Assembly: GCA_963782015.1 (NCBI GenBank) | Contig: CAWAHY010000004.1 | Span: 1,044,633 to 1,108,632 of the forward strand | Origin: an uncultured Chloroflexia bacterium | GTDB taxonomy: Bacteria; Chloroflexota; Limnocylindria; QHBO01 | Direction of reading: 5' to 3' | DNA: 64,000 nucleotides | In this document: positions 14,285-44,895 of the stretch, one piece after another | How the letters are laid out: each line of letters begins with the position of its first letter | Numbering within the stretch: the first letter of the stretch is position 1 | Notes under the pieces: generated by a model | What the model was told of the DNA's origin: nothing | What the model saw: only the letters and a program-made list of their open reading frames with translations | The model's database searches: none | Program-made: the position numbers and the translations under genes

Positions 14285-14347
14285 CGAACCGCCAGGCGCC
14301 GACCGCTGCGGCGGTTCGTCGGTGTGACACCCTTTCGAACCGCCAGG
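14285..14347 (+). promoter_or_regulatory. pntAA leader: 12-nt direct repeat with a shared complementary segment (alternative hairpins)
   Basis: CGAACCGCCAGG occurs at 14285-14296 and again at 14336-14347. GGCGGTTCG at 14310-14318 is the exact reverse complement of the first 9 nt of both copies. The second copy runs into the AGGAA Shine-Dalgarno-like sequence about 8 nt before ATG 14358. Confidence 0.35.
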
Positions 14348-14357
14348 AACCGCCCCC

Positions 14358-15533: not shown

Positions 15534-15587
15534 GCGAGGTCGCCGACGCTTCCCACCGAGGCGCTGCTCCAGGCGCTCTTCGTCTTC

Positions 15588-20573: not shown

Positions 20574-20664
20574 CTCCACTCCTCATCTGGTCCCGTGTGG
20601 GGCCGGTCTGTTAATGGCGACTGATTCTAGGGACCGCTCGCTCGCCATGCTTGCGTTTCAGGGT

Positions 20665-22306: not shown

Positions 22307-22310
22307 GTCG

Positions 22311-23180
22311 TCAGCGGGCCGGAGCCGTGCGGAGCGCATAGCGCTCGGCGATCTGGACGAGGCTGTACGACGCGATCCCGAGCAGGGCCGCGATCAGGAT
22401 CGTGGCCCACAGCTTCTCCGGGCCGCTGATGTACTGGTTGTTGAAGTTGATGATCGAGCGGCCGAGGCCATCGTTCACACCTCCGGGGCCCTCGCCGATG
22501 ATCGCGCCCACGATGCTGGCGGTGGCGCTGATCTTCAGCGCGGTGAAGAGGTAGGGCAGCGACGCCGGGATGCGGAGCTTCCAGAAGATCGCCCACGGCG
22601 ACGCCGCGTACGACCGCATCAGATCCAGGGCGCGGGGATCGGGGAGCGGAGGCCTCGGATCATGGCGATCGTGACCGGGAAGAAGGTGAGGTACGTTGCG
22701 ATGATCGCGACGCTGACGATGCTCGTCCCGAAGGCGAAGACGATCATGGGCGCCAGTGCCACGATCGGGATCGTCTGGCTGGCGATGACGTAGGGCACGA
22801 AGGCGCGCTCCAGGATGCGCGAGTGCACGAAGGCGGTGGCCAGCCCGACTCCCGAGGATCGTCCCGGCGACGAAACCAATGGCTGCCTCACGCCAGGTGT
22901 AGAGCGCGGCACCCACCAGGAACTGGCCCAGGGAGTCCGGTCGCAGACGCTGGACCGGTTCGAGGAGCGCGCCGACGATCTGCCAAACGTGGGGGAGCAT
23001 GAGGTCGGAGGCGAACCGGATTTCGAGCGGTGGACGCCACACCCAGCCAAAGTAGCGCCACGGGTCGCCGCCGATGAACTTCACCAGCTCCCAGGCGACG
23101 AGGATGGCCACGACGAAGAGGCCAAAGGTCAGCACGGACCGGGTCCGGGTGCGCCGTGCGACGCCGTCCGCCGTCGTCAT
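22311..23180 (-). pseudogene. ABC transporter permease (NitT/TauT family) with an internal out-of-frame segment
   Basis: N-terminal (MTTADGV...AAIGFVAGTILG) and C-terminal (DLMRSYAASPWAIFWKLRIPASLPYLFTALK...) parts share one frame. The middle part (GVGLATAFVHSRILERAFVPYVIASQTIPIVALAPMIVFAFG...IRGLRSP, about 22625-22850) is only readable in the frame of ORF 22619..23050. Confidence 0.8.
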
Positions 23181-23207
23181 CGGCTCACCGGGCTGGGCGA
23201 CGATCGC

Positions 23208-24542
23208 TCAGGCGATCGCTGCATCGGTTGCGTCGAGGGCTCGGTCGATGATCGCGAACCCCTCGCGCAGCTGCTCCTCGGTGATGCACAGCGGCGGGTT
23301 GGTGAAGACCTGGTTCCAGTGGAACATGGTGTACAGGCCGTCGGCCCGCAGCTGCGCGTCGAGCGCGGCGAGCTCGGGCGAGGACGAGTTGAAGGGAGCC
23401 ATCGGCTCCATCGTCTCGCGCGAGCGCACCAGCTCGAAGACCCCGAACAGGCCGATGCTCCGCACCGTGCCCGACGCACGGGTGGCGCGCCTGGAGCCCG
23501 GCGAGGAGCTCCTTCATGACCGGGTCGAGGCGGGCGGCGTTGCCGACCATGTCCTCGTCGCGCAGGACGTTGACCGCGGCGATCGCCGCGGCACAGCTGA
23601 TCGGGTGCGAGGAGTAGGTGAGGCCGCCGAAGTAGACGCGCTCGTTGAAGTGCTCGGCGATGCGCGGGCTCATCGCCACCGCGCCGAGCGGCAGGTACGA
23701 GCTGGTCAGCCCCTTGGCCATCGTCATCAGGTCCGGGCACGACGCCCCAGTGATCGACCGCGAACCAGCGCCCGGTGCGGCCGAAGCCGGCCATCACCTC
23801 GTCGCAGATCATCACGATGCCGTGCTTCGTGCACAGCTCGCGGATCCCCTTGAGGTAGCCGTCCGGCGGGATCAGGATGCCGTTGGTGCCGGTGACCGTC
23901 TCCATGATGAAGGCGGCGATGGTGTGCGGCCCCTCGTACTGCATCACCTCTTCGATGTACGCGAGGTGCTCCTCGACCGGCTCGGCCTCGCCGCGCGCCC
24001 AGCGCCACGGGTCGAGGACGCGGATGATCGCCCGGGATGCCCGGCTCGTTCGCCCAGCGGCGCGGGTCGCCGGTGACGCTGATCGCCCCGGCGGTGGCGC
24101 CGTGGTACGAGCGGTGATAGGCCATCACCTTCTGGCGCCCCGTCACCATGCGCGCCATGCGCAGCGCGTTCTCGTTGGCCTCCGCGCCGCCGAGGGTGAA
24201 GAAGAACTGATTGAGGTCGCCGGGCGTCACCTCGGCGAGGAGCTGGCCCAGCCGGCCGCGCACCTCGGTCGCGAACTGCGGCGCCGCGAAGGCCAGCTTG
24301 TGCGCCTGCTCGGCGATGGCATCCGCCACGCGCTTGTTCCCGTGGCCGATGTTGATGCTCATCAGCTGGGAGTTGAAGTCGAGGTAGCGCTTGCCGTCGG
24401 GGTCCCAGAAGTAGACCCCCTCGGCCCGGTCGATGACGATCGGGTTGATCTTGGCCTGGGCGCTCCAGGAGAAGAAGGTGTACTCGCGGTTGAGATGCAG
24501 GATCTCGTCGGTGGTGAGCCGATCGGTGGAGGTGACGGTCAT
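23208..24542 (-). pseudogene. class III (omega) aminotransferase, three frame breaks
   Basis: MTVTSTDRL...FFTLGGAEANENALRMAR...YHGAT runs to about 24040. IIRVLDPWRW...IAAFIMETVTGTNGILIPP...MICDEVMAGFGRTGRWFA runs to about 23740. DLMTMAKGLTSSYLPLGAV (PLP Lys) ...FGGLTYSSHP runs to about 23470. RSIGLFGVFELV...ITEEQLREGFAIIDRAL ends at stop 23208. Confidence 0.85.
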
Positions 24543-24737
24543 CGGTACCTCGAGCGCAACGGGTGCGGCGTCATGAGTGTGGGAGTCCGATTAGACCACA
24601 GCCGGCAAGCCGCCCCAGGCAGACTGCGGCCGTCAACGAAGTGTTGCCAGTGGACACACCCACGTCGCGGGGAGGGCGGTCCGGTGGGGTCCGGTCCACT
24701 GGGCCTCTTGCGCGGTGACCCGATACTGTCCGGACCG

Positions 24738-26671: not shown

Positions 26672-28088
26672 CTACTCCTCAGCGCCGGCTGGCCCCTGGC
26701 TGCCCGCCGCCCGCAGGATGGCGGCCGCAGTGCGGTCGATATCGGCCTCGGTGGTCGACCAGTTGCTGACGCTGATGCGCATTGCTCCCAGGCCATGCCA
26801 GGTGGTGCCGCCCATCCAGGCCTCGCCGCCGTCCTGGACCCGCGTCATCACCTCGCGCGTGAACGCGTCGGCGTCGCCGCCGCGCGGGGCGTGAAGCGCA
26901 CCAGCACCTGGTTGAGGACGACGTCGTTGAGGATCTCGACACCCTCGACCGCGGAGAGCCGATCCGCCATCCGCCGTGCGAGGCGGCAGCAGCGCTCGAC
27001 CAGCTCCCGCACGCCGTCCCGACCCAGCGAGCGGAGCGCCGCGTAGACGATGAAGCCGCGAGCCCGTCGCGAGGAGTCGAAGACGAATTCCCAGTTGTCC
27101 CGATGCGCGGGGTCCTGCATCAGGTAGGCGGCCGGGGCGGGTGACATGGCCGCCCGGTGGGCATCGCGATCCCGCACCGCGACGAAGCCGCAGTCGTAGC
27201 CGACGTTGAGCCACTTGTGCGCGTCGGTGGCCCAGGAGTCGGCGCGCTCGACCCCCGCCACCAGGTGCCGCAGCTCCGGGCTCGCCGCCGCCCACAGGCC
27301 AAAGGCCCCGTCGACGTGGATCCAGGCGTTGGGGTGGGTCGCGAGTGCATCCGCGACCGCGTCGGCCGGGTCGAAGGCGCCGGTGTTCACGTTGCCGGCC
27401 TGGATCGCCACGATGGTCGGGACGTCGCGGTCAAGCGCGGCAGGCAGGAGCTCCGCCCGCATCCGGCCCTGCTCGTCGGTGGGGATCCGCGTGACCCGCT
27501 CGCGACCCAGCCCCAGGTACTGGAGCGCTCGAGGACGGTGGAATGCACCTCGTCCCCCACGAAGACCTGGATCTCCGGAGCCCCGTAGAGGCCACGCGCC
27601 TCGACGTCCCAGCCGGCACGGCGGAGGACGGCGTGGCGGCCGGCCGCCAGGCCCACCGTGCTGCCCAGCGCGGCGCCGGTCGGGAAGCCGAAGCTGGCAT
27701 CGGCGGGCAGTCCGAGCAGGTCGAGCATCCACGGGCCGGCGACGAGCTCGGCGGCGGCCGCAGCCGGCGACATCGGGTGGAGGTTCGAATTCTGTGCCCA
27801 CGTGCCGGTCAGCCAATCGGCGCCGGCCGCGGCCGGAAGCTGGCCGCCGACGACGAACCCGAAGTAGCGCGGCCCGGCGGTCGCCACCAGCCCGGGGTCG
27901 AAGTCGCGCGCCATCTGCTCGACCACCGTCTCCGGGTCCTCCCCCTCATCCGGCAGCGGGCCGGCGAGCCTGGCCACGAGGCCGTTGTCATCGGTCAGGG
28001 CGCCGACGTGCCGCTCGTCCAGCCCCGCCACGAATTCGAGGGCGAGCTCCGAGGCACGTCGGAGCACCCGCTCGGTGTCGTCAGCCAC
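26672..28088 (-). pseudogene. PLP-dependent (group II-like) decarboxylase, two frame breaks
   Basis: GTG 28088 preceded by GGAGGAG. MADDTERVLRRASELALEF...GPRYFGFVVGG...FPTGAALGSTVGLAAGR runs to about 27530. LRALQYLGLGRERV...VDGAFGLWAAASP...TDAHKWLNVGYDCG (PLP Lys) runs to about 26885. GGDADAFTREVMTRVQDGGEAWMGGTTW... ends at stop 26672. Confidence 0.8.
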
Positions 28089-28707
28089 GGGTCTCCTCCC
28101 AGAGGGTCGCCGCCACCAGCACGCCGGGATCGCGCAGCGGTTCGCCGACCAGCTGGGCCAGGCGCTCGGCCACGGCCCACCAGTCGAACGACTCGGTCAC
28201 GTCGGACGCGTTGACGAGGAGCAGCCGCTCCCCGGGGATGTAGCTCGGGATGATGCGGTCGAGGATCGCCTCGATCTCGTCGCGGAACGCATCGTTGGTG
28301 GAGCGGACCCCATCGGCCAGCAGCGCGACGTCCGGCAGCAGCCGCACGAACAGGTCGTAGGTCGAGGCCCAGTGGCGGATGAGCGGCTCGACCCCGAACG
28401 GGTCGGCACCATCGGTCACGCGCAGGAAGTACGCGAAGTTGTCGACCACGGACCGATCGGTGACGAGCACCTCGGCCCGCTTCCGCAGCTCCAGCTCCTG
28501 CTGGACCTGGGCCATCAGCACCCAGAGCTGGGCCTCGGGCGTGGCCCCCTCGTTCAGGCCGAGGGGATTGAAGCGGACCATCTCGCGGCCGACCTCGACG
28601 CTCCGCCCGGCCCGCCCGATGGTGCTGGCAAAGGCGTGCACCGCGTTCGTCTTGCGCACCGAGTGCGACCCGATGAACGCGATCTTGGCCGGCCTGCTCC
28701 ATGGCAC
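28081..28707 (-). CDS. P-loop NTPase-like protein (AAA_28/NadR-kinase-like) with a degenerate Walker A
   Basis: 208-aa ORF (GTG start). KIAFIGSHSVRKTN occupies the Walker A position, with Arg where the conserved Gly is expected. VLVTDRS resembles Walker B. 8-nt overlap with the decarboxylase start. Confidence 0.5.
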   Translation of the reverse strand: MPWSRPAKIAFIGSHSVRKTNAVHAFASTIGRAGRSVEVGREMVRFNPLGLNEGATPEAQLWVLMAQVQQELELRKRAEVLVTDRSVVDNFAYFLRVTDGADPFGVEPLIRHWASTYDLFVRLLPDVALLADGVRSTNDAFRDEIEAILDRIIPSYIPGERLLLVNASDVTESFDWWAVAERLAQLVGEPLRDPGVLVAATLWEETRG

Positions 28708-28757
28708 GCCGACAGGGTACTCAGTTGCCCTTGGCGACGGGGTGTAGCCTTGGCGCC

Positions 28758-29974: not shown

Positions 29975-30823
29975 ATGGCGAGGATCATCCGCGCGGCGCT
30001 GTTGCAGGCCGACTGGACCGGCGACAAGGAGTCGATGATCGCCAAGCACGAGCGCTACGCCCGAGATGCCGCCAAGCAGGGCGCCCAGGTGATGTGCTTC
30101 CAGGAGCTCTTCTACGGCCCCTACTTCTGCCAGGTGCAGGATCCGCAGTACTTCGCCTACACCGAGAAGATCCCCGGCGGACCCACCACGGAGCGGATGC
30201 AGGCGCTGGCGCGCGAGACGGGAATGGTCCTGATGGTGCCGATGTACGAGGAGGACGCCGACACCACCGGCATCTACTACAACACCGCCGCGGTGATCGA
30301 CGCCGATGGCTCATACCTCGGGAAGTACCGCAAGACGCACATCCCCCACGTCAAGGGCTTCTGGGAGAAGTTCTACTTCCGCCCGGGGAACATGGGATAT
30401 CCGGTCTTCGACACCGCGGTGGGGAAGGTGGGCGTCTACATCTGCTACGACCGCCACTTCCCGGAGGGAGCCCGGGCGCTGGGGCTCAACGGGGCGGAGC
30501 TGGTCTTCATCCCCTCCGCCACCTCGCGCGGGCTGAGCGAGTATCTCTGGCGCGTGGAGCAGGTCTCGCACGCCCTCGCCAACGGCTACTTCGTGGGGAC
30601 GATCAACCGCGTCGGGATCGAGCCGCTCGGCGAGGACGACTTCTACGGGCAGTCGTACTTCGTCGACCCGCGGGGCCAGTTCGTGGGTGACGTCGGCGAC
30701 GCCCACAAGGAGGAGCTGCTCGTCCGCGACCTCGACATGGACAAGATCACCGAGGTGCGGCAGCTCTGGCAGTTCTACCGCGACCGCCGGCCCGATGCAT
30801 ACGCGGACCTGGTGCGCCCGTAG
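29975..30823 (+). CDS. beta-ureidopropionase-like carbon-nitrogen hydrolase (nitrilase superfamily)
   Basis: AGGAGGAG RBS. MARIIRAALLQADW...VMCFQELF (catalytic Glu), YRKTHIP (Lys), GVYICYDRHFPE (Cys). Confidence 0.85.
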   Translation: MARIIRAALLQADWTGDKESMIAKHERYARDAAKQGAQVMCFQELFYGPYFCQVQDPQYFAYTEKIPGGPTTERMQALARETGMVLMVPMYEEDADTTGIYYNTAAVIDADGSYLGKYRKTHIPHVKGFWEKFYFRPGNMGYPVFDTAVGKVGVYICYDRHFPEGARALGLNGAELVFIPSATSRGLSEYLWRVEQVSHALANGYFVGTINRVGIEPLGEDDFYGQSYFVDPRGQFVGDVGDAHKEELLVRDLDMDKITEVRQLWQFYRDRRPDAYADLVRP

Positions 30824-30838
30824 CCGTTGGCGATTCGA

Positions 30839-30985
30839 TACAACGCTGGGTAGTACATAGAGCGCGTGTGACCACGCTCTGCCACCCCGATAGAGCCGCG
30901 AATGGGTCACGGTCTTACTACCGCTGGTGGTAAAGGGCTGCACCGGACCGAGCCCCGCGTGTCGATGAACTACCGACAGGTAGTA
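30839..30985. promoter_or_regulatory. palindromic sites (motif family 1) upstream of the LLM oxidoreductase gene
   Basis: TACAACGCTGGGTAGTA at 30839-30855 and TACTACCGCTGGTGGTA at 30916-30932 both fit TACnAC-N5-GTnGTA. A related perfect palindrome ACTACC-GACA-GGTAGT lies at 30969-30984, 27 nt before ATG 31012. Confidence 0.45.
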
Positions 30986-31011
30986 AGCCGCGCGTCAGTA
31001 GAGGAAGCCAG

Positions 31012-32016
31012 ATGGACTTCGGGTTCACGCTCAAGCCGGAGAACGACCTGGCGCGCACCGTCGAGCTGACGAAGCGTGCCGAGGCGAACGGCTTCTCGTA
31101 CGGCTGGCTCTTCGACAGCCACGTGCTGTGGCGCGAGCCCTACGTGCTGCTGACCCTGATGGCGCAGGCCACCGAGCGGATGCGCCTCGGGACGTGCGTC
31201 ACCAACCCGGCCACGCGCGAGCCGAGCGTGACCGCCTCGACCCTGGCGGTGCTCGACGAGCTGAGCGGCGGGCGGATGGACCTTGGCATCGGGCGCGGCG
31301 ACAGCGCGCGGCGGGTGCTCGGCAAGCCGCCCACGACCATGAAGACGCTGGAGGAGGCGATCGCCGTCATCCGCGACCTCGTCGAGGGGCGCTCCGTCAC
31401 CTTCGAGGGCACGGAGCTGGTGCTCCCGTGGTCCGGCAAGTGGAAGCTTCCCGTCTGGGTGGCCGGCTATGGACCGATGGCGCTGGCCATGACCGGCCGC
31501 GTCGCCGACGGCCTGATCCTCCAGCTCGCCGATCCCGACCTGATCCGCTGGTTCGTCTCGCAGCTGCGCGAGGCGGAGGCTGCTGCGGGACGGCCAAAGG
31601 GGAGCGTCAAGGTCCAGGCGGCTGCGCCAGCGCACGTGGGCGCTCGCGACGTTGGCCGCGACCGGACCCGATGGTTCCCCGCACTCGTCAGCAACCACGT
31701 CGTCGACCTGGTCAACAAGTACCCGCGCGAGCAGCTCCCCGAGGCGCTGACCGGCTACATCGGCAACCGGGAGGGCTACGACTACCACCACCACGCCGAG
31801 GTCGGGTCGAGCAACGCGGCCTTCGTCGGCGACGCCGTGACGGATCGCTTCTGCGTCCTGGGCGAGGCGGCGGAGCACGTCGCCAAGCTGCAGGAGCTGG
31901 CCGCGGCCGGCGTCGACCAGTTCAACCTCTACCTGATGAACGGCGACGAGGAAGAGCAGCTGGACCGCTACGGCCGTGACATCATGCCCACCTTGATGAG
32001 GACCTCGGATGCCTGA
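31012..32016 (+). CDS. luciferase-like (LLM-class) oxidoreductase, probably F420-dependent (mer/Fgd-related)
   Basis: 334-aa ORF: MDFGFTLKPE...ANGFSYGWLFDSHVLW...LGTCVTNPATREP...GRMDLGIGRGDS. The TIM-barrel LLM pattern resembles the F420-dependent clade as I recall it. Cofactor not verified. Confidence 0.75.
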   Translation: MDFGFTLKPENDLARTVELTKRAEANGFSYGWLFDSHVLWREPYVLLTLMAQATERMRLGTCVTNPATREPSVTASTLAVLDELSGGRMDLGIGRGDSARRVLGKPPTTMKTLEEAIAVIRDLVEGRSVTFEGTELVLPWSGKWKLPVWVAGYGPMALAMTGRVADGLILQLADPDLIRWFVSQLREAEAAAGRPKGSVKVQAAAPAHVGARDVGRDRTRWFPALVSNHVVDLVNKYPREQLPEALTGYIGNREGYDYHHHAEVGSSNAAFVGDAVTDRFCVLGEAAEHVAKLQELAAAGVDQFNLYLMNGDEEEQLDRYGRDIMPTLMRTSDA

Positions 32017-32665
32017 CCTCGACCAGCTCGAGAAGGCGGCGGAGCGGCGCTGGCTCGCGTCGTGGCTGATCGGGCCGACCCACACCCGCTACGACGAGCT
32101 GCCGCTCCAGCCGGGAGACATGGCTCCCGACCTGGCGCTGCCCGACACCTCCGGGGAGCAGCGCCACCTGTCGGAGTTCTGGACCCACGGCCCGGCGATC
32201 GTCATCTTCATGCGCCACTTCGGCTGCTCCTGCCTGATGGAGCGCTGGGAGGGGCTGCGCGGCGAGCTCGAGGACTACGCGGCCGCCGGAGCCCGGGTGG
32301 TGGCGATCTGCCAGGCGGAGCCGGAGCGCGCCGAGGCGGTGGCCGCGCGGCGCGGGTACGCCTTCCCGGTGCTGTGCGACCCGGAGCTGCAGGCGTATCG
32401 GGCCTTTGGCCTGCTCGAGGGCCAGCCGGCGCAGATCCTGCACGCCTTCCCGTGGCAGGCCGGCGACGAGGAGACGGCGCGGACCCTCTTCATCGAGCCG
32501 CGGCGGGGGACCGAGCGCGCGGTGGTCGACTCGCCCTGGCAGCTGCCGGGGGAGTTCGTGATCGGCTCCAACGGACGGATCGCCCTGGCCCACCGCTACC
32601 AGTACTGCGAGGATTTCCCGCCCAAGACGGTGCTGGTCGGCGCGATCCTGGCGGCGGAGAGCTGA
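32009..32665 (+). CDS. peroxiredoxin-like (AhpC/TSA, thioredoxin-fold) family protein
   Basis: 8-nt overlap with the LLM gene. PDLALPDTSGEQRHLSEFW...AIVIFMRHFGCSCLMERW is a redoxin-type pattern. Confidence 0.65.
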   Translation: MPDLDQLEKAAERRWLASWLIGPTHTRYDELPLQPGDMAPDLALPDTSGEQRHLSEFWTHGPAIVIFMRHFGCSCLMERWEGLRGELEDYAAAGARVVAICQAEPERAEAVAARRGYAFPVLCDPELQAYRAFGLLEGQPAQILHAFPWQAGDEETARTLFIEPRRGTERAVVDSPWQLPGEFVIGSNGRIALAHRYQYCEDFPPKTVLVGAILAAES

Positions 32666-32666
32666 G

Positions 32667-33853
32667 ATGGCGACCACGGCGGCTCGCCGCATCGACCGGC
32701 TGCGCGACAGCATCGCCCCGTTCCTCGCCTTCTTCACCGGGCCGTTCGCGCGGCTGAACGCCAACCCGGAGATCGCCAACTTCGCGGTCGGCAACCCGCA
32801 GGACTACCCGATCCCGGCCTACGTGGATGCCCTGCGCGCGAACCTCGAGCCAAGGCGGCGCAACTGGTTCGCCTACAAGGACAGCGAGCCGAAGTCGCGG
32901 ATCACCGTCGCCCGCTCGCTCGCGCGAGCGGACCGGCCTGCCGTGGGACCCCGCCGACGTGGCGATGACGAACGGTGGCTTCGCGGCGCTGGCGGTCGCC
33001 ATGCGCGCTCTGGTCGAGCCGGGCGACGAGGTGATCTTCCTCTCGCCGCCGTGGTTCTTCTACGAGTTCATGATCCTGGCCGCCGATGGCGTGCCGGTGC
33101 GCCTGCACCTCGCCCCGCCCGCCTTCGAGCCCGACATGGCCGAGATCGCCGCCGCGATCACGCCGCGCACCCGGGCGGTCATCTTCAACTCGCCGCACAA
33201 CCCGTCCGGCCGGGTCTACCCGCTCGAGACGCTCCAGGCCCTGGCGCAGACGCTGACCGATGCCTCCAGCCCGCATCGGCCATCCGATCTACCTGATCTC
33301 CGATGAGCCGTACAACCGGATCATCTTCGACGGCCGCGCCTTCCACTCGCCGGCGGAGGTCTATCCGAACACGCTGGTGGCCTATTCCTACGGGAAGACG
33401 CTGCTGGCCCCGGGCATGCGCATCGGCTACCTGACCATGCCACCCACCATGCCGGACCGCGAGGCGTTCCGCGAGACGATCTTCGTGGCCCAGTTCGCCA
33501 CCGGCTACGCGTTCCCCAATGCGCTGCTCCAGCACTCCATCGAGGACCTGGAGGGACTCTCGATCGACGTCGGCGCCATGCAGCAGCGGCGCGACGGGCT
33601 GGTGGCTGCGCTGCGGGAGATCGGCTACGAGACGACCATGCCGGAGGGCACCTTCTACATCATGGCCCGCGCCCCGATCGCGGACGACGTGGCCTTCTGC
33701 GACCTGCTCGGCAGGCACGGCGTGCTGGTCCTGCCCGGCACGATCGTCGAGGTGCCCGGCTGGTTCCGGATCAGCCTGACCGCCACCGACGAGATGGTCG
33801 AGCGGGGGATCCCCGGCTTCGCCGCCGCCTACGCCGAGGCGCTCGCCGGCTAG
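32667..33853 (+). pseudogene. class I/II aminotransferase, two frame breaks
   Basis: MATTAARRIDRLRDSIAPFL...FAVGNPQDYP runs to about 32920. GLPWDPADVAMTNGGFAALAVAMRALVEPGDEV...IFNSPHNPSGRVY runs to about 33270. IYLISDEPYNRIIFDG...YSYGKTLLAPGMRIGYL (PLP Lys) ...FRISL ends at stop 33853. Confidence 0.8.
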
Positions 33854-34320
33854 GTGACCGGCTGGGTTGCCTGCGGCTCAAGCTCGAGGTCGTCCAGGTA
33901 GATCACCTCGAGCTTGTCACTGCCCCGCAGCGATCGGTCGTTGGTGACGAACGCCGTGGCGCCGCTGGCGCGCGCGGTGGCGAGGTGGACGGCATCCGAC
34001 AGTCCGATCCGACGGATCCCGCGGATCACCGCCGCATCAGCCGACAGCTCGCCCTCGACTGGAACGACCTTGAGCCCGGCAATGGATCGGATCTCGTCGG
34101 AGTACCGCTCGACCTGAGCCAGGTCATGCCTGGCCGGCCCGGTCAGGACTTCGGCCAGGCCCACGGCGGACAGGACGGCTGCCACGCGACCGTCCTCGGC
34201 CGCCTTCATCAAGCCTCTGGCGGCCGGCCCCCAGCGCTCATCTCCCTCCAGGAGATAGATCAGGATGTTGGCATCGACCGCGATCCGCCGGTGCCGCGCG
34301 CACACCTCCCCGATCGTCAC
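33850..34320 (-). CDS. vapC: PIN-domain ribonuclease toxin VapC
   Basis: GTG 34320 overlaps the antitoxin stop (GTGA). IAVDANILIYLL (first acidic residue), AEVLTG and LSDAVHLATA...FVTNDRSL give the typical PIN acidic quartet spacing. Confidence 0.8.
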   Translation of the reverse strand: MTIGEVCARHRRIAVDANILIYLLEGDERWGPAARGLMKAAEDGRVAAVLSAVGLAEVLTGPARHDLAQVERYSDEIRSIAGLKVVPVEGELSADAAVIRGIRRIGLSDAVHLATARASGATAFVTNDRSLRGSDKLEVIYLDDLELEPQATQPVT

Positions 34321-34568
34321 CGGCCCATGCGCTCGAGCCGCTCCTCCCACTCGTCGCGGAGGGCGCGGACGTACGCCACCGGATCCGGCCCGTACATGCC
34401 CTTTCCGGCGCCGTAGAGGCGGTCGACCGCACTTCCGCCCTGCCGCATGACGAGCTCGCGTCCACGGATCTCGACGGAGAGGCGATCCCCGGCCTTGATC
34501 CCGAGTTCGCGCCGCACCCTGGCGGGGACGTTGATCTGGTTCTTCGAGCTGACCTTGACGCTTAGCAT
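34317..34568 (-). CDS. vapB: AbrB/SpoVT-domain antitoxin (VapB-type)
   Basis: Start taken at ATG 34568. MLSVKVSSKNQINVPARVRRELGIKAGDRLSVEI is a swapped-hairpin AbrB/MazE-type DNA-binding domain. Confidence 0.75.
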   Translation of the reverse strand: MLSVKVSSKNQINVPARVRRELGIKAGDRLSVEIRGRELVMRQGGSAVDRLYGAGKGMYGPDPVAYVRALRDEWEERLERMGR

Positions 34569-34604
34569 GTCAACGATGCTAAGCGCCACCCATGCCCCCG
34601 TCAA
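34559..34604 (-). promoter_or_regulatory. vapBC promoter with an overlapping palindromic operator; leaderless start
   Basis: On the minus strand, TTGACG (34604-34599) is followed by 17 nt, TAGCAT (34581-34576), 7 nt, then ATG (34568). CGCTTAGCAT-N7-ATGCTAAGCG (34559-34585) is a perfect 10-bp inverted repeat. One arm holds the -10 element and the other holds the start codon. Confidence 0.45.
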
Positions 34605-34632
34605 GCGGAGGGGCACAGGCGATGCGGTCCAG

Positions 34633-35360
34633 TCACGCGATCAGGCACCCGTCGAGGAATTCGGCAAGTTCCCCCTCGCGCGACACCGCATGCTCCGAGG
34701 AAGCGGTCTGACGCATCGCCAGCTCGAGGTAGCGGTGGCTGGCCGCAGCGGCGGCCCGCGCCTCCTCGGTCAGCGCCCCGCCCCTCCACGCGCTGTCGCG
34801 TCGGTCCGAGGGGAAGCCATGCTCGTCGTGCTGCCGGCGGAAGCGATCGAGCGGCCCCCAGTGCTTCAGGCGCACGATCTGCGCTCCGACGCGGTCGACG
34901 TGCGCCGGCGAGTACGAATCCTGCAGGCAGTGCAGCAGCTCGCCGAAGAGCATCCATCGACGCCGACTCTCTGGCCAGCGCCATGGCACGAGCGTGGGTG
35001 GTGGCCAGGAACTCGCGCATGTCGTGGACCGCGCGCGGTCGTCGTCCCTGACCAGGCTCGGAGCGCGTGGCGCCTCTGGGCGAAGGGAAGGGCGGAGACC
35101 AGGAACCCGGCCAGGCTCACATCGGGGGCGCGGACACCGCGGATGAGCGCCCGCTGCTGCCCAGGCGACAGCGCCAACCCCTCCCACGCCGCGCGGGTGA
35201 TCGCCTCGTGGCCCTCCTCGCGACTCACCAGGGGCGCGCGCACGAGCCAGCCGACACCGAGGAGGATCGGGAGGAGGTCGAGGGGCCAGCTCACGTCCGA
35301 GAGGATGGCGCAGTCGCGGCATTCCCACCAGCCACTTGCCGACGCTAGGATGTCTCCCAA
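34633..35360 (-). pseudogene. hypothetical protein (His-rich HxLQDSxSPxH motif), two frame breaks
   Basis: MGDILASASGWWEC...REEGHEAITRAAWEGL...PFAQRRHAL (frame of ORF 34866..35360). Then EPGQGRRPRAVHDMREFLATTHARAMALARES (frame of 34601..35020). Then RRRWMLFGELLHCLQDSYSPAHVDR...EFLDGCLIA (frame of 34633..36012). Confidence 0.4.
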
Positions 35361-35391
35361 GCCAGTTCATCAACCTCCCCTGGAGGAACCG

Positions 35392-36772
35392 ATGCGCACC
35401 CTGATCAAGAACGGCACCGTCGTGAATGCCGATGCCACCACCCGCGCCGACGTGCTGGTCGACGGCGAGAAGATCGCCCTGATCGGCAGCGACCTGCCGG
35501 CGACCGCCGACCGGACGATCGACGCGGCCGGCAAGTGGGTGATCCCCGGCGCCATCGACGTGCATACCCACATGGAGCTGCCCTTCGGCGGCACCTTCGC
35601 CAAGGACACGTTCGAGACCGGCACGCGGGCCGCGGCCTTCGGCGGGACCACCACCATCATCGACTTCGCGGTCCAGCCGCGGGGCAAGGCGCTCCGCGAC
35701 GGGCTCGACGCCTGGCATGCCAAGGCCGATGGCAACGCCTGCATCGACTACGGCTTCCACATGATCATCAGCGACGTCCGCGACGACGTCCTGGCCGAGA
35801 TGGACACCCTCGTCGACGAGGGCGTCACCACCTTCAAGCTGTTCACCGCCTACCCCGGCGTCTTCTTCTCCGATGACGGGGCGATCTTCCGCGCGATGCA
35901 GCAGACGGCGAAGAACGGCGGCCTGATCATGATGCACGCCGAGAACGGCCTCGCCATCGACGTCGTGGCGGGGCAGACCTTCGCCGCCGGCAACACCGAT
36001 CCCTACTACCACGGAACGTCGCGGTCACCGGTGCTCGAGGGTGAGGCGACGAACCGCGTGATCCGCCTGGCGGAGGTCGCCGGTGCGCCGGTCTACATCG
36101 TCCACCTCTCCGCCCGGGAGGCCCTCAACGAGGTGCGCCGGGCCCGCGACGAGGGGCTGCCGGCCTTCGCGGAGACCTGCCCGCAGTACCTCTTCCTCTC
36201 GCTCGACGACATGGGCGACGGCTTCAACGGCGCCAAGTTCGTCTGCTCGCCACCCCTGCGCCCGGCCGATCACCAGGAGGACCTGTGGCTCGGCCTCCTC
36301 AAGGACGACCTCCAGGTCGTCTCGACCGACCACTGCCCGTTCGACTTCCACGGCCAGAAGGAGATGGGGATGGGCGACTTCCGCAAGGTCCCGAACGGCC
36401 TGCCCGGCGTCGAGAACCGCGTCGACCTGCTGCACTCCGGCGGCGTGGCCACCGGGCGGCTCTCGCCGAACCGATGGGTGGAGGTCATCTCGGCCGCGCC
36501 GGCCCGCATGTTCGGGCTGCCGCAGAAGGGGGCGGTGGGGATCGGGCTGGATGCCGACCTCGTCGTGTACGACCCAGCTCGGAAGCACACCATCAGCGCC
36601 TCGACGCATCACATGGCCGTCGACTATTCGTGCTACGAGGGGCTCGAGGTCACCGGGGGGTGCCGACGTCGTGCTCTCGCGCGGCAAGATCGTGGTCGAC
36701 GGCTCCGAGTGGCTCGGCGCCCGGGGCGACGGGCAGTTCCTGAAGCGCCAGCGCAGCGCATATCTGAAGTAG
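35392..36772 (+). pseudogene. hydA: dihydropyrimidinase / D-hydantoinase, one frame break near the 3' end
   Basis: GGAGGA RBS, ATG 35392. MRTLIKNGTVVNAD...GAIDVHTHMELPFGG...TFKLFTAYPG (carboxylated Lys) ...MMHAENG...VHLS...VVSTDHCPF. At the G6 run 36655-36660 the frame shifts. The correct C-terminus ADVVLSRGKIVVDGSEWLGARGDGQFLKRQ ends at 36772. Confidence 0.9.
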
Positions 36773-39544: not shown

Positions 39545-39958
39545 ATGGCTTCCTCGATGAGCACCACGACCACCATCACGCCGGAGGTCCGCGCATGGCT
39601 GATGGCCGAGCTGCGCTTCCCGGTGATGGCGACCATCGGCAAGGACGGCATGCCGAGCCAGTCGGTCATCTGGTTCGACCTCGATCCGGACCGCGATGAC
39701 GTGGTGCTGCTCAACACGCTGGCCGGCCGGGTCAAGGATCGTCACCTGCGGCGCGATCCGCGGATCAGCCTCTGCTTCGAGGACGGGACCGACTACGTGA
39801 CGATCGAGGGGCGGGCCACCCTCTCCGACGACCATGAGAAGGCGCTCGACAACATCTGGGCCATGGCGCATCGCTACGGTCAGGGCGAGGGTTCGTTCGC
39901 GATGGGCGACCGGGTCGACATCACGGTGCACGTGGAGCGAGTGATCCGGCACCGGTGA
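39545..39958 (+). CDS. PPOX-class (pyridoxamine 5'-phosphate oxidase fold) probable F420-dependent enzyme
   Basis: ATG 39545. FPVMATIGKDGMPSQSVIWFDLD...VLLNTLAGRVKDRHLRRDPRISLCFEDG...VTIEGRA is a split-barrel flavin/deazaflavin pattern. Cofactor inferred from family recollection and context. Confidence 0.65.
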   Translation: MASSMSTTTTITPEVRAWLMAELRFPVMATIGKDGMPSQSVIWFDLDPDRDDVVLLNTLAGRVKDRHLRRDPRISLCFEDGTDYVTIEGRATLSDDHEKALDNIWAMAHRYGQGEGSFAMGDRVDITVHVERVIRHR

Positions 39959-40893
39959 GCGCTCCGATCCGGCTCGGCATGCTGGCCTGGAACCAGTACA
40001 CGACGTGGCCGGCCATGCGTGCCGCGGCGGTCCGCGCCGACGAGCTGGGCTATGACGACCTCTGGACCTGGGATCACCTGTACCCGATCGTCGGCTCGCC
40101 TGAGGGCCCCATCCTCGAGGGCTGGACGGTCATCACCGGCTGGGCCGGTGCCACGTCACGGGCGCGGCTGGGGCTCATGGTCGGTGCCAACACCCTGCGC
40201 AACCCGGCGCTGGTGGCGAAGATGGCGACGACGCTGGACCACGTCAGCGGGGGTCGCGCGATCCTGGGGATCGGCGGCGCCTGGTTCGAGACCGAGCATC
40301 TTGCGTATGGGATCCCGTTCGGCGGTTCGCCGGGGGAGCGGCTGCGCTGGCTGGATGAGGCGGCCCGGATCATGCGCGGCATGCTGCGCGGCGAGGAGCC
40401 GTCCGGGGAGCTGTTCTACGCTGCGCGGGCGGTGCGGAACGACCCGCCGCCGGTGCAGGACCGGCTGCCGCTGCTGATCGGGGGAGGTGGAGAGCGGCGC
40501 ACGCTGCGGACCGTGGCCCTCTACGCCGACATGTGCAACCTGGGCGGCGGCTTCGACAACGTGAGGCACAAGGACGAGGTGCTGCGCCGCCACTGCGCGG
40601 AGGTGGGCCGCGACGAGTCCGAGATCGAGCGGACGGTGGGGATGGGCGTCTGCCTCATCCGCGACACGGAGGACGAGGCGCGCCGCGTCAACGACGCCCT
40701 CTTCGCGCACAACGGGCGGGCGCGGGTGTGGCCCAACCAGCACATCGGGACGGCGGAGCAGGTGGCCGAGATGATGCGCCCGTACCTGGGGATCGGCTTC
40801 CGGCATTTCATCTGCGGCTTCCCCGGGCCCCATGACGCCGAGTCGATGGAGCGGATGATCACCCAGGTGAAGCCGATGCTCGAGGCCGGCTGA
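39955..40893 (+). CDS. LLM-class F420-dependent oxidoreductase (Rv1855c-like)
   Basis: GTGA overlap with the PPOX gene. LGMLAWNQYTTW...ADELGYDDLWTWDHL...EGWTVITGWAGATSRARLGLMVGANTLRNPALVAKMATTLDHVSGGRAILGIGGAW. Confidence 0.8.
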   Translation: MSAPIRLGMLAWNQYTTWPAMRAAAVRADELGYDDLWTWDHLYPIVGSPEGPILEGWTVITGWAGATSRARLGLMVGANTLRNPALVAKMATTLDHVSGGRAILGIGGAWFETEHLAYGIPFGGSPGERLRWLDEAARIMRGMLRGEEPSGELFYAARAVRNDPPPVQDRLPLLIGGGGERRTLRTVALYADMCNLGGGFDNVRHKDEVLRRHCAEVGRDESEIERTVGMGVCLIRDTEDEARRVNDALFAHNGRARVWPNQHIGTAEQVAEMMRPYLGIGFRHFICGFPGPHDAESMERMITQVKPMLEAG

Positions 40894-41108: not shown

Positions 41109-42050
41109 ATGAAGGTCGCGCTCCTTGCCGGCGGCACCGGCGGCGCCAAGCTGGCCCACGGCTTCCAGCTGGCCCTGCCGCCCGGCGACCTGACGGTGAT
41201 CGTCAACGTCGGCGACGACACCGATCGGTTCGGGCTGCTCGTCTGCCCGGATATCGACACGATCCTGTACACCCTCGCCGGCCTCGCCGACCGCGAGCAG
41301 GGCTGGGGCGTGGCGGGCGACACGGCCACCGCGCTCGGGATGCTCGAGCGGTACGGCGAGGAGGCCTGGTTCCGCATCGGTGACGCCGACCTGGCGACGC
41401 ACGTGCGCCGCGCGCACCTCATGCGCGACGGCTCCTCCCTGACCGATGCCACCGCCGCGATGGCCACCGCATTGGGCGTGCCGAGCCACCTGGTGCCGGC
41501 GACCGACCAGCGGCTGCGAACCGGCCTGGAGACCGATGTGGGCGAGCTCGACTTCCAGTCCTACTTCGTGCAGCGCGGCCAGCGCGACGAGGTCCGCGCG
41601 GTGCGCTTCGACGGGGCCGATTCCGCCCGACCCAGCCCCGCGGCGCTCGTGGCCCTGGCGACCGCCGAGCTGGTGGTGATCGGGCCGTCCAACCCGATCG
41701 TGAGCATCGGCCCGATCCTGGCCGTGCCGGGCATGCGCGAGGCGCTGCTCGCATCGCCCGCGCCGCGGATCGGGGTCAGCGGGATCGTGGCGGGCAAGGC
41801 GCTGCGCGGTCCGGCGGACCGGATGCTCACCTCGCTCGGCCACGAGTCGAGCGCCCTTGGCGTCGCGCGCCTGTACGCGGGGCTCGTCGAGCGGTTCGTG
41901 GTCGACGAGGCGGACGCGGCGCTGGCCCCGGCCATCGAGGCGCTCGGCATGGCGGTCAGCGTCCTGCCGACGGTGATGCGCGACGACGCGGATCGCGCCG
42001 GGCTGGCGCGAGCCCTTGTCGGGCTGGGCGAGGGTATGCTCCGGGGGTGA
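41109..42050 (+). CDS. cofD: 2-phospho-L-lactate (or enolpyruvyl) transferase CofD/FbiA
   Basis: MKVALLAGGTGGAKLAHG...VNVGDD...GLLVCPDIDT...VIGPSNPIVSIGPIL. Confidence 0.9.
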   Translation: MKVALLAGGTGGAKLAHGFQLALPPGDLTVIVNVGDDTDRFGLLVCPDIDTILYTLAGLADREQGWGVAGDTATALGMLERYGEEAWFRIGDADLATHVRRAHLMRDGSSLTDATAAMATALGVPSHLVPATDQRLRTGLETDVGELDFQSYFVQRGQRDEVRAVRFDGADSARPSPAALVALATAELVVIGPSNPIVSIGPILAVPGMREALLASPAPRIGVSGIVAGKALRGPADRMLTSLGHESSALGVARLYAGLVERFVVDEADAALAPAIEALGMAVSVLPTVMRDDADRAGLARALVGLGEGMLRG

Positions 42051-42643
42051 GCGTCCGGATCATCGTGCCGCACCGCGGCCTGGCCGCGGCCAAGACGCGC
42101 CTCGCCCCCGTCCTCGACGATACCGAGCGCGAGGCGCTCGCCCGGCGCCTGCTGGTCCGCGTGCTGGCCGTCGCGCACGCGGCCTGTGGCGACGTGGTGG
42201 TCATCAGCCCGTCTGACGCGCTCGGGCCGCTGGTGGCGACGGCCGGCGCACGGCTCGTCCACCAGCTCGGGCTGGGGCTCAACGCCGGGCTGGAGCAGGC
42301 TCGTCGCGAGGCCATCGCCGACGGGATCACGACGCTCCTGGTGCTGCACGGGGACCTTCCCAACCTGGCGACCGATGATGTCGCGGCGCTCCTCGACGCA
42401 GTGCCGCCCTCGGGGGGCGGGGCGATCGCGCAGGATCGGGCGGGGAGAGGCACGAACGCGCTGGCGCTGCGACCCCCCGACGCGATCGCGTTCCGGTTCG
42501 GGATCGGGTCGCTCGAGGCGCACCGCGCGGCCGCCACGGACGCGGGGGTGCCACTGGTCGAGGTCCATCGGCCGGGGCTGGCCTTCGACCTCGACACGCC
42601 CGCCGACCTGGCGCGCTGGATCGAGCTGGGCGACGCGGCATGA
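42047..42643 (+). CDS. cofC: phospholactate/phosphoenolpyruvate guanylyltransferase CofC/FbiD
   Basis: 4-nt overlap with cofD. IIVPHRGLAAAKTRLAPVL...LLVLHGDLPNL...AIAQDRAGRGTNALAL. Confidence 0.8.
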   Translation: MSVRIIVPHRGLAAAKTRLAPVLDDTEREALARRLLVRVLAVAHAACGDVVVISPSDALGPLVATAGARLVHQLGLGLNAGLEQARREAIADGITTLLVLHGDLPNLATDDVAALLDAVPPSGGGAIAQDRAGRGTNALALRPPDAIAFRFGIGSLEAHRAAATDAGVPLVEVHRPGLAFDLDTPADLARWIELGDAA

Positions 42644-43390
42644 TCATGCTGGTCGCCCTCGAGGGGATCCCGGAGGTGAAGCGGGGAGATCACCTGCCTT
42701 CCCTGATCAAGACGGCAATCGGCGCCGCGGGCATCAGCCTGGAAGCCGGAGACGTGCTGGTCGTCACGCAGAAGGTCGTCAGCAAGGCCGAGGGGCGCGT
42801 GGTGGAGCTGGCATCGGTCAGGCCCGGGGCGAAGGCGCGCGAGTGGGCCGACCACTGGGGGAAGGACCCACGCCAGGTGGAGCTCGTCCTCCAGGAGAGC
42901 GCGGAGGTGCTGCGGATGGCGAAGGGCGGGCTGATCATCTCGCGCACGCCGCACGGCTTCGTGTGCGCGAACGCCGGCGTCGACCTCTCGAACGTGGGGG
43001 GCGGCGAGGTTGCGACCCTGCTGCCGGTTGACCCCGATGCCTCCGCCCGCGCGCTTGCGCGACGGGTTGCGCGCGCTCACCGGGGTGGGGGTGGCTGTCG
43101 TCATCAGCGACTCGTTCGGGCGGCCGTGGCGGAACGGGATCGTGAACGTGGCAATCGGGTGCGCGGGGCTGGACGCGCTGGTCGACCTGCGCGGCACGCC
43201 GGACGTGCAGGGCCGCGTGATGCACTCGACGGTGATCGCGGTGGCCGACGAGCTGGCCTCCGCTGCGGACCTGGCCGGCGGCAAGGTCGCGCAGCGCCCT
43301 GTCGTGCTGGTGCGCGGCTGGGAGCACGAGGCGGGGGAGGGGGCCGCGGCGGCGCTCGTCATGGATCGAGAGCTGGACCTCTTCCCCTAG
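42640..43390 (+). pseudogene. cofE: F420-0:gamma-glutamyl ligase CofE (short, single-domain form), one frame break
   Basis: 4-nt overlap with cofC. GDVLVVTQKVVSKAEGRVV...FVCANAGVDLSNV...LLPVDPDASAR runs to about 43050. RLRDGLRALTGVGVAVVISDSFGRPWRNGIVNVAIG...VRGW ends at stop 43390. About 250 codons, with no room for a C-terminal nitroreductase-like domain. Confidence 0.85.
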
Positions 43391-43403
43391 GGGCCACGGC
43401 CTG

Positions 43404-43555
43404 GCGTACGCGCAGCGTGCACAGCCAAGAAGAAGGCCGAGTTCGTTGTCGCTCCTGTGCGCCCAGCGAGCACCGTCCGCAACCAATGGCTCTTTTCGCG
43501 CCGACCAGGCCCCGTTCGACCTGCAAGTCGCCGGCTGTGCACGCTCAGCGTGCAC
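43404..43555. repeat. palindromic repeats (motif family 2) in the convergent cofE / NTF2-like intergenic region
   Basis: GCGTACGC-GCA-GCGTGCAC at 43404-43422 and GTGCACGC-TCA-GCGTGCAC at 43537-43555 (perfect 9-1-9 palindrome). A degenerate copy CTGTGCGC-CCA-GCGAGCAC lies at 43455-43473. Confidence 0.5.
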
Positions 43556-43572
43556 GGAGCGGAGAGCGACGG

Positions 43573-43908
43573 CTACATCGGTTGCAGGAAGAGGGAAACG
43601 ATGTGCGCGCCCTCGACCCGGAAGTTCGCCTCGACCCGCATCGAGGGGGCGCCGGGGCGCATGACCGTCATGTCGGCGATGTAGCTGGCGCCCATGCTGC
43701 GGCCGTCGTTGGCGTACATCCGGAAGCCGTCACCGGCCCGGATGAACCAGCCACCCACCTTGTCGCGGCCGCGCAGGTTGGTTCGCTCGTCCGACCCAGG
43801 GACGGAGATCCCAAGCACCGCGTTCTCCGCGAAGAGAGCGACCGCGTCCTCGCGGCGGTCGTCGTTGATCAGCTCGATGAAGAGGTCGACGGTCTCGGTG
43901 GCACCCAT
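43573..43908 (-). CDS. NTF2-like / SnoaL-like small protein
   Basis: 111-aa ORF with good GC3 bias. MGATETVDLFIELINDDRREDAVALFAENAVL resembles the SnoaL-like polyketide cyclase fold family. Low specificity. Confidence 0.5.
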   Translation of the reverse strand: MGATETVDLFIELINDDRREDAVALFAENAVLGISVPGSDERTNLRGRDKVGGWFIRAGDGFRMYANDGRSMGASYIADMTVMRPGAPSMRVEANFRVEGAHIVSLFLQPM

Positions 43909-43950
43909 GCGGGCCAGTGTAGCGGCGGTCCGCGGCTAGACTCCCGCGAC

Positions 43951-44895
43951 ATGGAGCGGCTGCGGATCGGGCTGATCGGGTGGGGGACGGTTGGCGCTGC
44001 GCTCGGCGAGCTGATCGCCACCGGGCCGCTGCCGGTGGAGCTGGCACGCATCGCGATCCGGGACCCGGGCCGCGAGCGGGCGAGCGCGCTGCCGGCGGGC
44101 GTCGAGATCGGCCGAGCGGGCGTGGTGGTGGCTGCCCCGGACCTCGACGCGGTGGTGGAGCTGGCCGGCGGCATCGACGACCCGCTCGACTGGGCCCGTG
44201 CCACACTCGGCAATGGCCGTCCGTTCGTCACCGCCAACAAGGCGCTCCTCGCCACGCACGGCAACGCGCTGTCGCGGATCGCGCGGGGGCACCCGGGAGC
44301 GGCGCTCCTGGCGTCGGCCAGCGTCGGCGGCGGGACGCCCATGATCGAGACGGTCGAGCACCTGGCCGCGACGGGTGGCATCACCCGGCTCCGCGGGCTG
44401 CTCAACGCGACAACGACCTTCATCCTCTCCGCCATGGCCCAGGGGCGCTCGTACGACGAGGCGTTGGCGGCTGCCCAGGGCGCGGGCTACGCCGAGGCCG
44501 ATCCCTCCTTCGACGTCGAGGGGCGGGACGCCGCCCAGAAGCTCGCCATCCTGGCCTCGGTGGCGTGGGGCCGGTGGCGTCCCGAGCGCGAGGTGGAGAC
44601 GCAGGGTATCGTCGGCCTGACCGTCGAGCCGGGCCGGATCGTGCGGCTGGTGGCGGAGGCGGACGGGGAGGACCTGCGAGTGAAGCCGATGGAGCTGCTC
44701 CCCGGCACCGCGCTGGCATCGGCGTCGGGGGTGGAGAGTGTGCTGGAGGTGGAGGTGCGCGACGCGGGCACGTTCCGGGTGAGCGGCCCCGGCGCCGGTG
44801 GGCGCGCAACGGCAGGTGCCGTCTACGCCGACCTTGGCCGGCTCGTCGCCGGCGAGCGGCCGATCCTGTTCGCGCCGCGCGGAGGCGCGGGGTGA
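43951..44895 (+). CDS. hom: homoserine dehydrogenase (short form, no ACT domain)
   Basis: ATG 43951. IGLIGWGTVGAAL, FVTANKALLA, ASVGGGTPMIETV, LLNATTTFILSAM, GYAEADPSFDVEGRDAAQKLAILA. Confidence 0.85.
   Translation: MERLRIGLIGWGTVGAALGELIATGPLPVELARIAIRDPGRERASALPAGVEIGRAGVVVAAPDLDAVVELAGGIDDPLDWARATLGNGRPFVTANKALLATHGNALSRIARGHPGAALLASASVGGGTPMIETVEHLAATGGITRLRGLLNATTTFILSAMAQGRSYDEALAAAQGAGYAEADPSFDVEGRDAAQKLAILASVAWGRWRPEREVETQGIVGLTVEPGRIVRLVAEADGEDLRVKPMELLPGTALASASGVESVLEVEVRDAGTFRVSGPGAGGRATAGAVYADLGRLVAGERPILFAPRGGAG

Follow-up and report, generated by a model that had tools for sequence, protein, structure and literature searches.

A 64,000-nucleotide stretch of an uncultured soil Chloroflexota bacterium of the Limnocylindria (contig CAWAHY010000004.1, positions 1,044,633 to 1,108,632; here called the window) carries a gene cluster for reductive pyrimidine degradation (Pyd) in which an oxidoreductase of the luciferase-like monooxygenase (LLM) superfamily probably reduces uracil or thymine with reduced coenzyme F420 (F420H2), replacing the dihydropyrimidine dehydrogenase PydA. 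An earlier note on this DNA, made from the letters alone, had suggested an F420-dependent LLM in the place of PydA. Three lines of evidence, namely the protein family of the LLM, gene order in three phyla, and the absence of PydA from the loci compared, now make this the best-supported reading. The substrate, the reaction and its direction are what we infer from sequence and gene context, and the arrangement looks like a non-orthologous displacement of PydA. The new element would be a variant first step in an otherwise known pathway, for which comparative genomics provides good support.

The LLM is a protein of 334 amino acids with PF00296 as its sole Pfam domain and without Fe-S motifs. It matches the TIGR03842 model (the CPS_4043 family) over its full length, with residues 2-328 on profile positions 1-329, and scores above the curated cutoff (Table 1). 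All other LLM models score far below their own cutoffs, and close homologues of the protein carry the TIGR03842 family name. On this profile evidence the window LLM is a true TIGR03842 F420-class oxidoreductase, as the earlier note had guessed with its probably F420-dependent class, and it is predicted to use diffusible F420H2. An AlphaFold2 model of the protein (predicted TM-score 0.76, predicted local distance difference test score 69) has the luciferase-like TIM-barrel fold. Foldseek searches with this model place Mer on top (TM-score ~0.72-0.74), with FGD and Adf also among the top matches (~0.7). In both sequence and fold, the F420-dependent enzymes Mer, FGD and Adf rank ahead of FMN-type LLMs.

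Mer, the F420-dependent methylene-tetrahydromethanopterin reductase, is the closest characterised relative of the LLM. It is the nearest solved structure by sequence (1F07, E 1e-35), shares the VTNPxTR(x)P motif, and has the cofactor and the type of reaction predicted for the LLM, in which F420H2 gives a hydride to a carbon of an N-heterocycle. The LLM could on these grounds be a Mer-like C1 enzyme, acting on methylene-tetrahydromethanopterin or methylene-tetrahydrofolate, with an incidental position in the cluster. Its scores against the Mer models are far under the equivalog cutoffs (NF002619, 155.9 bits against 276; TIGR03555, 135.7 against 348.7), and identity in structural alignments is ~28% (24-29% across chains). 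Mer also differs in its organisms, gene context and pterin substrate. The conserved neighbours of the LLM in three phyla are pyrimidine-catabolic genes. The only C1 or folate gene in the annotated or Pfam-scanned loci is a formate-tetrahydrofolate ligase ~7 kb from the Pseudovibrio LLM, and it is not conserved. In Proteobacteria the LLM is the only F420 client, and the hosts are not known to use a methanopterin-linked Mer. A C1 role is therefore scarcely credible.

The partners of the LLM in the window provide most roles of the Pyd pathway. The dihydropyrimidinase (DHPase) is 93% identical to an intact 459-residue protein on a related contig (L002), has 1YNY and 3SFW as its nearest Protein Data Bank (PDB) entries (E 1e-147), and by family score takes the PydB role. 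The carbon-nitrogen (CN) hydrolase immediately upstream of the LLM has as PDB neighbours the N-carbamoylputrescine amidohydrolase 5H8I (1e-60), Drosophila beta-alanine synthase 2VHH (2.5e-51) and human beta-ureidopropionase 6FTQ; D-carbamoylases match it far more weakly. Its best NCBIfam match, aguB, reaches 265 bits and lies below the cutoff of 410. It is a probable beta-ureidopropionase (PydC role). A class-III aminotransferase, encoded upstream on the opposite strand, is the probable beta-alanine or beta-aminoisobutyrate transaminase (PydD role). Beside it lies an ATP-binding cassette (ABC) transporter, with genes in the order NMT1/THI5-type binding protein (19500-20582), permease, ATPase and permease, which is a candidate pyrimidine uptake system with a presumed substrate. 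The CoA-acylating methylmalonate-semialdehyde dehydrogenase (MMSDH) that would end the pathway is not in this window. A hydantoin or D-amino-acid cluster (hydantoinase plus D-carbamoylase) was considered and rejected, because the CN-hydrolase is much nearer to beta-ureidopropionases and carbamoylputrescine amidases than to D-carbamoylases, because of the omega-aminotransferase and MMSDH partners, and because such a cluster needs no reductase.

Gene order was compared by tblastn, using window proteins or intact orthologues, across 82 loci (the best 80 genomic relatives, all from Chloroflexota, plus L001 and L002) that amount to 1.24 Mb including the window. The best homologues of the LLM are 86-94% identical and come from Chloroflexota metagenome-assembled genomes (MAGs) labelled 'Candidatus Limnocylindria'. 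Clustering at 70% identity divides the LLMs of these loci into four main groups, all of which score as TIGR03842, and the window's orthologue group has 56 sequences; the denominators below are loci with enough flanking sequence. Within this group the CN-hydrolase is immediately upstream of the LLM on the same strand in 41 of 46 loci, and DHPase lies downstream in 40 of 43, directly adjacent in 22. The earlier note had proposed this co-occurrence as a check, and the clustering of CN-hydrolase, LLM and DHPase is far beyond chance. Of the 33 loci that extend 8 kb or more upstream, 29 have a class-III aminotransferase there on the opposite strand, and an ABC transporter stands beside it in L002 and 19 loci. 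A downstream MMSDH (TIGR01722, 708-726 bits) is present in 18 of 32. Another group of seven loci (L068, L070, L071, L072, L075, L077 and L080) has the same CN-hydrolase-LLM-DHPase arrangement with an LLM only 62-64% identical to the window's (at ~10001-10978 in full-length members), a CN-hydrolase 89-93% identical to the window's, and a DHPase 80-84% identical to the intact L002 copy. This suggests that a divergent paralogue has replaced the LLM within an otherwise conserved operon.

Two genes that the earlier note had included among the cluster partners do not share this conservation. The peroxiredoxin-like gene occurs in 8/82 loci and the class I/II aminotransferase, which had been taken as the pathway transaminase, in 9/82. 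They occur as a pair, always in close relatives of the window, so they appear to be a lineage-specific insertion and not part of the core; among the transaminases, it is the class-III gene upstream that is conserved. The VapBC toxin-antitoxin pair that sits between the class I/II aminotransferase and DHPase, with the same insertion in L002, is likewise a lineage-specific insertion.

The association extends beyond Chloroflexota. A tblastn search of annotated plasmids with the LLM recovered members of TIGR03842 from Streptomyces, Leisingera and Paracoccus. The gene order in both Streptomyces sp. BHT-5-2 and S. rimosus starts with a CN-hydrolase (69% identity) and a class-III aminotransferase and continues, further along, with a DHPase (60%) that is followed after ~15 nucleotides by the LLM (50%). 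A large proteobacterial clade was gathered by homology search with the Leisingera protein as seed, and eight genera of Alpha- and Gammaproteobacteria were inspected. All eight have the operon cofG-cofH-cofD-cofC-cofE-Fno-LLM, with the LLM last, so that F420 synthesis and NADPH-dependent F420 reduction are packaged with one F420 enzyme, the LLM. Five of the eight (Leisingera, Cohaesibacter, Marinobacterium, Pseudovibrio and a marine MAG) have DHPase within 10-12 kb. These five loci all have an NCS1 or NMT1-ABC transporter and, with the exception of the marine MAG, an M20 hydrolase of the carbamoylase family. In Leisingera caerulea, cofG-cofH-cofD-cofC-cofE-npdG(Fno)-LLM is divergent from pntA-pntB, an AptA-type omega-aminotransferase, an M20 hydrolase, a hydA DHPase and an NCS1 nucleobase symporter. 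The marine MAG has DHPase-ABC-cofGHDCE-Fno-LLM-aminotransferase on one strand throughout. An NMT1 transporter stands between DHPase and the cof operon in Cohaesibacter and the marine MAG, with binding proteins 34-37% identical to the window's. Marinobacterium and Pseudovibrio have islands of LLM, DHPase, M20 hydrolase and transporter without an aminotransferase, which reduces the minimal conserved set to a transporter, the LLM, DHPase and a carbamoylase, that is, to the PydA, PydB and PydC roles. Carbamoylases are non-orthologous between phyla (CN-hydrolase versus M20) and gene orders differ, which argues that the link between LLM and DHPase is functional and not merely inherited synteny. The operon lies at 6510-13002 in locus L084 and at ~4400-11005 in loci L085 and L089-L095. 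It is plasmid-borne in Leisingera and Paracoccus and has the look of a mobile F420 module that is self-sufficient and serves one client enzyme.

Canonical PydA was sought by tblastn with E. coli PreA and PreT. Nothing similar to either occurs in the 64-kb window at E<1e-3, in agreement with the earlier note. PreA has no homologue at E<1e-3 in the 1.24 Mb of Chloroflexota loci, or at E<1e-5 in 12 partly overlapping Streptomyces and proteobacterial stretches (~0.28 Mb); neither PreT nor YgfK homologues were found in the latter loci. PydA (E. coli PreT/PreA, mammalian DPD and the clostridial ferredoxin-dependent PydAc) catalyses the reaction proposed for the LLM at the same point in the pathway, just before DHPase, and has the same gene neighbours (PydB, PydC, transporter and aminotransferase). 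Its FMN domain is of the DHO_dh type and comes with Fe-S clusters, and some forms add an FAD/NAD(P)H subunit (GltD-like PreT), whereas the LLM is an unrelated TIM barrel without sequence similarity to it. The LLM is not a member of the PydA family, though it may be PydA-like in function.

The search covered the loci, not whole genomes, and PydA could be encoded elsewhere, with the LLM acting as an F420H2-dependent malonate or methylmalonate semialdehyde reductase (like PydE or RutE) or in another accessory redox role. The F420 LLMs that have been characterised, such as Adf, FGD, fHMAD and phthiodiolone ketoreductase, most often catalyse carbonyl/alcohol redox, and LLMs of group 2, one of the other Limnocylindria groups, adjoin a class-III aminotransferase, often without DHPase nearby. 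Several observations render this role decidedly improbable. A CoA-acylating MMSDH is already present in many clusters, and the aminotransferase-free islands of Marinobacterium and Pseudovibrio would make no semialdehyde locally. The tightest pairing is between LLM and DHPase, which are direct neighbours in Streptomyces and 22 Limnocylindria loci. In canonical bacterial Pyd clusters PydA adjoins PydB and PydC, but it is missing from every locus examined.

Reduction of the pyrimidine ring by the LLM is consistent with this distribution: its association with DHPase in three phyla, together with the recurrent minimal set, points to a Pyd pathway with the LLM in PydA's place. Pyrimidines would be imported, probably by the NMT1-type ABC transporter. 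The LLM would then move a hydride from F420H2 to the C5=C6 bond and produce 5,6-dihydrouracil or dihydrothymine. F420H2 donates electrons only as hydride, at a potential near that of NADPH, and hydride transfer to uracil C6 with protonation at C5 is chemically plausible. Dihydropyrimidinase would open the ring, the CN-hydrolase would release beta-alanine or beta-aminoisobutyrate with CO2 and NH3, and the class-III aminotransferase would convert these amino acids to malonate or methylmalonate semialdehyde. In many relatives, the CoA-acylating MMSDH would complete the pathway. A proton-translocating transhydrogenase (pntAB) 13 kb upstream of the cluster, with counterparts within the pyrimidine operon of Leisingera and close to group-2 LLM loci (L059, L065 and L067), is possibly linked to the cluster as an NADPH/F420H2 supply.

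Several points weigh against this pathway. Reduction of the uracil C5=C6 bond is, to our knowledge, without precedent in the LLM fold and would be new chemistry; the groups on which F420 LLMs have so far been shown to act are C=N+, C=O/CH-OH and conjugated imine systems. A literature search found no publication and no biochemical data on any TIGR03842 member. The structural model is mediocre, and its poorest segments (residues 36-42, 64-77 and 95-111) contain the conserved His37 and the VTNPxTR motif. A canonical PydA may, as noted, lie elsewhere in the genome. DHPase is absent within 10-12 kb in three of the eight proteobacterial genera (Paracoccus alcaliphilus, Pukyongiella and Hoeflea), and among Limnocylindria paralogues it is largely missing near group-2 LLMs and entirely missing near group-4 LLMs. 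Beside some of the latter lies YgfK, itself a ring reductase, so that the LLM there is not simply the missing reductase.

Group-4 LLMs (seven loci, ~67% identical to the window's) have no DHPase or CN-hydrolase within 10 kb. In three of the seven (L053, L057 and L064), an LLM that scores 410 bits against TIGR03842 lies divergent to the genes of an SsnA-like amidohydrolase and of a true YgfK (TIGR03315, 884 bits). The genes concerned are at 7244-8263 and 5081-6646 in L053, 27-4401 in L057, and 5265-9863 in L064. Loci L069, L073 and L076 of this group have no conserved neighbours. A remark published in 2025 noted that Chloroflexota SsnA clusters carry an F420 LLM, proposed there as a ring reductase that replaces YgfK, and stated that these clusters lack YgfK and UacX (PMC12507026). 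The three YgfK-bearing loci do not fit that statement. The putative 'yanthine reductase' LLM of those clusters belongs to the same family and embodies the same idea, a dearomatising F420 LLM ahead of a cyclic amidohydrolase. It differs from the window LLM in belonging to another paralogue group and in its pathway, which concerns purine or uric acid instead of pyrimidine, and in the loci examined YgfK is also present, which makes it there an addition rather than a simple replacement; both assignments are putative. The SsnA/YgfK paralogues again link the TIGR03842 family to reductive nucleobase ring opening, and they leave room for a different substrate or a second redox step.

The same paralogues raise the question of whether the window LLM is a ring reductase that feeds DHPase but has a different N-heterocycle as its substrate, for instance a modified pyrimidine or a 2-oxo or 2,4-dioxo ring derived from purines. 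Each lineage has several TIGR03842 paralogue groups, those beside SsnA and YgfK adjoin genes of the reductive uric-acid pathway (PMC12507026), and the substrates of TIGR02033 enzymes (HyuA) include hydantoin-type intermediates of the same pathway. The partners of the orthologue group are instead the classic Pyd set, in which omega-aminotransferase and MMSDH fit beta-alanine and beta-aminoisobutyrate. The CN-hydrolase is nearest to beta-ureidopropionase and N-carbamoylputrescine amidases, and the proteobacterial loci have NCS1 nucleobase transporters. Another ring substrate is accordingly unlikely, although it is the least remote of the alternatives to uracil and thymine.

RutA provides a further comparison, as a member of the LLM superfamily that acts on uracil and thymine, the substrates proposed here. 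It uses FMNH2 and O2 for oxidative ring cleavage, and no rut genes (rutB-G context) occur in the window. The RutA model TIGR03612 is not among the 25 best of 31 NCBIfam families that match the LLM, and F420 cannot activate O2. A RutA-like oxygenase was rejected on these family scores and on F420 chemistry.

More broadly, we lean slightly towards regarding TIGR03842 as a family of F420H2-dependent nucleobase-ring reductases. One branch would be an unrecognised Fe-S-free dihydropyrimidine dehydrogenase. It would be the reason for the self-contained F420 biosynthesis and Fno operon in many marine Alpha- and Gammaproteobacteria and one major use of F420 in soil Chloroflexota. The sister paralogues on the SsnA/YgfK side would act on purine-type rings. 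The literature search found nothing on an F420-dependent pyrimidine reductase or on F420 and Leisingera, and PMC12507026 is its sole relevant precedent. A 2021 FEMS review stated that Chloroflexi and Proteobacteria had no characterised F420 enzyme, and listed the reason they make F420 as an open question (PMC8498797). If pyrimidine reduction by the LLM is demonstrated, it would represent a third type of dihydropyrimidine dehydrogenase, unrelated in structure to the NAD(P)H-dependent Fe-S flavoprotein and the ferredoxin-dependent clostridial form. It would also be new chemistry for luciferase-like F420 enzymes and the first concrete physiological role of F420 in Chloroflexota and Proteobacteria, and it would correct pathway reconstructions in which these bacteria, abundant in soil and sea, come out with incomplete pyrimidine catabolism. 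The question is testable in culturable Leisingera, Pseudovibrio, Cohaesibacter and Streptomyces rimosus.

Reading frames in the window need some caution. The five genes listed in the earlier note are all present on the plus strand with the ends it gave; it had overlooked that the class I/II aminotransferase and DHPase are frameshifted. The former has +1 insertions near 32915 and 33266 and runs through three frames, and the latter has a single +1 insertion near 36655 inside a G6 run; these insertions are why the two spans are not multiples of three. The class-III aminotransferase has at least two frameshifts (three frames in tblastn against the intact L002 protein). The cofD-cofC-cofE set that the note had placed downstream is present at 41109-43387, with one frameshift near 43040 in cofE (residues 5-256 of 257 covered in two frames by tblastn with Leisingera CofD/C/E). 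Analysis of G+C at third codon positions finds genes broken into two to four frames across the whole 64 kb, for example at 3198-4584, 8065-10172, 22314-24575, 26675-28196 and 42640-45918, a pattern typical of long-read metagenome assemblies. L002 has unbroken copies of both the 394-residue class I/II aminotransferase and DHPase. Because split frames are window-wide, one lies in a homopolymer, and relatives have intact copies, the frameshifts are most likely long-read assembly errors, and decay of the cluster into pseudogenes was rejected for the same reasons. The window has the appearance of an unpolished long-read MAG, which makes any pseudogene call here unsafe. Its G+C content is ~70%. Rfam (gathering thresholds) and tRNA scans of the window gave no matches, and the best-matching sequencing runs share only ~10% of words with it; none is RNA.

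Table 1. Features of the pyrimidine cluster and its surroundings, in window coordinates
Feature	Position	Strand	Family evidence
CN-hydrolase, N-carbamoyl-amidase type	29975-30823	+	PF00795 E 4.9e-64
TIGR03842-family LLM oxidoreductase	31012-32016	+	PF00296 E 1.5e-64; TIGR03842 434.8 bits, cutoff 295.45
AhpC/TSA-fold, SelL-related redox-like protein	32009-32665	+	PF00578 1.4e-15, PF13911
Class I/II pyridoxal-phosphate aminotransferase, PRK06836-like	32667-33853	+	PF00155 on two fragments
VapC (PIN) toxin and AbrB/MazE-type antitoxin	33850-34616	-	PF01850 3e-16; PF04014/TIGR01439
Dihydropyrimidinase/D-hydantoinase (DHPase)	35392-36772	+	TIGR02033 528.9 bits, cutoff 393
Class-III (omega) aminotransferase	23152-24542	-	PF00202
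NMT1/THI5-type ABC transporter	19500-22879	-	PF09084, PF00528, PF00005
cofD	41109-42050	+	PF01933
cofC	42047-42643	+	PF01983
cofE	42640-43387	+	PF01996
Second LLM, TIGR03560-like (Rv1855c type)	39955-40893	+	PF00296; TIGR03560 216.6 bits, below cutoff 231
PntAB proton-translocating NAD(P) transhydrogenase (pntAA-pntAB-pntB)	14364-17257	+	PF05222/PF01262, PF12769, PF02233
Pyridoxal-phosphate-dependent decarboxylase, frameshifted	26675-28196	-	PF00282
AAA_28 ATPase	28084-28731	-	

Several genes in Table 1 had escaped the earlier note, namely the class-III aminotransferase, the NMT1-type transporter, VapBC, the second LLM and pntAB. The second LLM lies directly upstream of cofD, and its relatives flank the class-III aminotransferase in group-2 loci. 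The AhpC/TSA-like gene overlaps the stop codon of the LLM by 8 nucleotides; its product reaches 96 bits against the SelL-related model NF040769, below the cutoff of 120, and has a CSC motif (...RHFGCSC...) in place of the canonical peroxidatic PxxxT/SxxC. The decarboxylase and the AAA_28 ATPase separate the aminotransferase/transporter unit from the CN-hydrolase-LLM unit, and L001 likewise has an AAA_28 gene close to its cluster. Locus L060 (7690-19334) bears a second version of the cluster, which is divergent and includes cofE, an FGD-like LLM, an FDOR-like protein, a TIGR03842 LLM, two TIGR03560-type LLMs (11868-12857 and 14146-15135), a class-III aminotransferase, a DHPase (60% identity), a GucD-like aldehyde dehydrogenase and a CN-hydrolase (71% identity). 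Elsewhere in the window, a 578-residue open reading frame without a Pfam match (52681-54414, minus strand) combines a strong coding signal with a signal-like segment at the N-terminus and a PADPNAA repeat.

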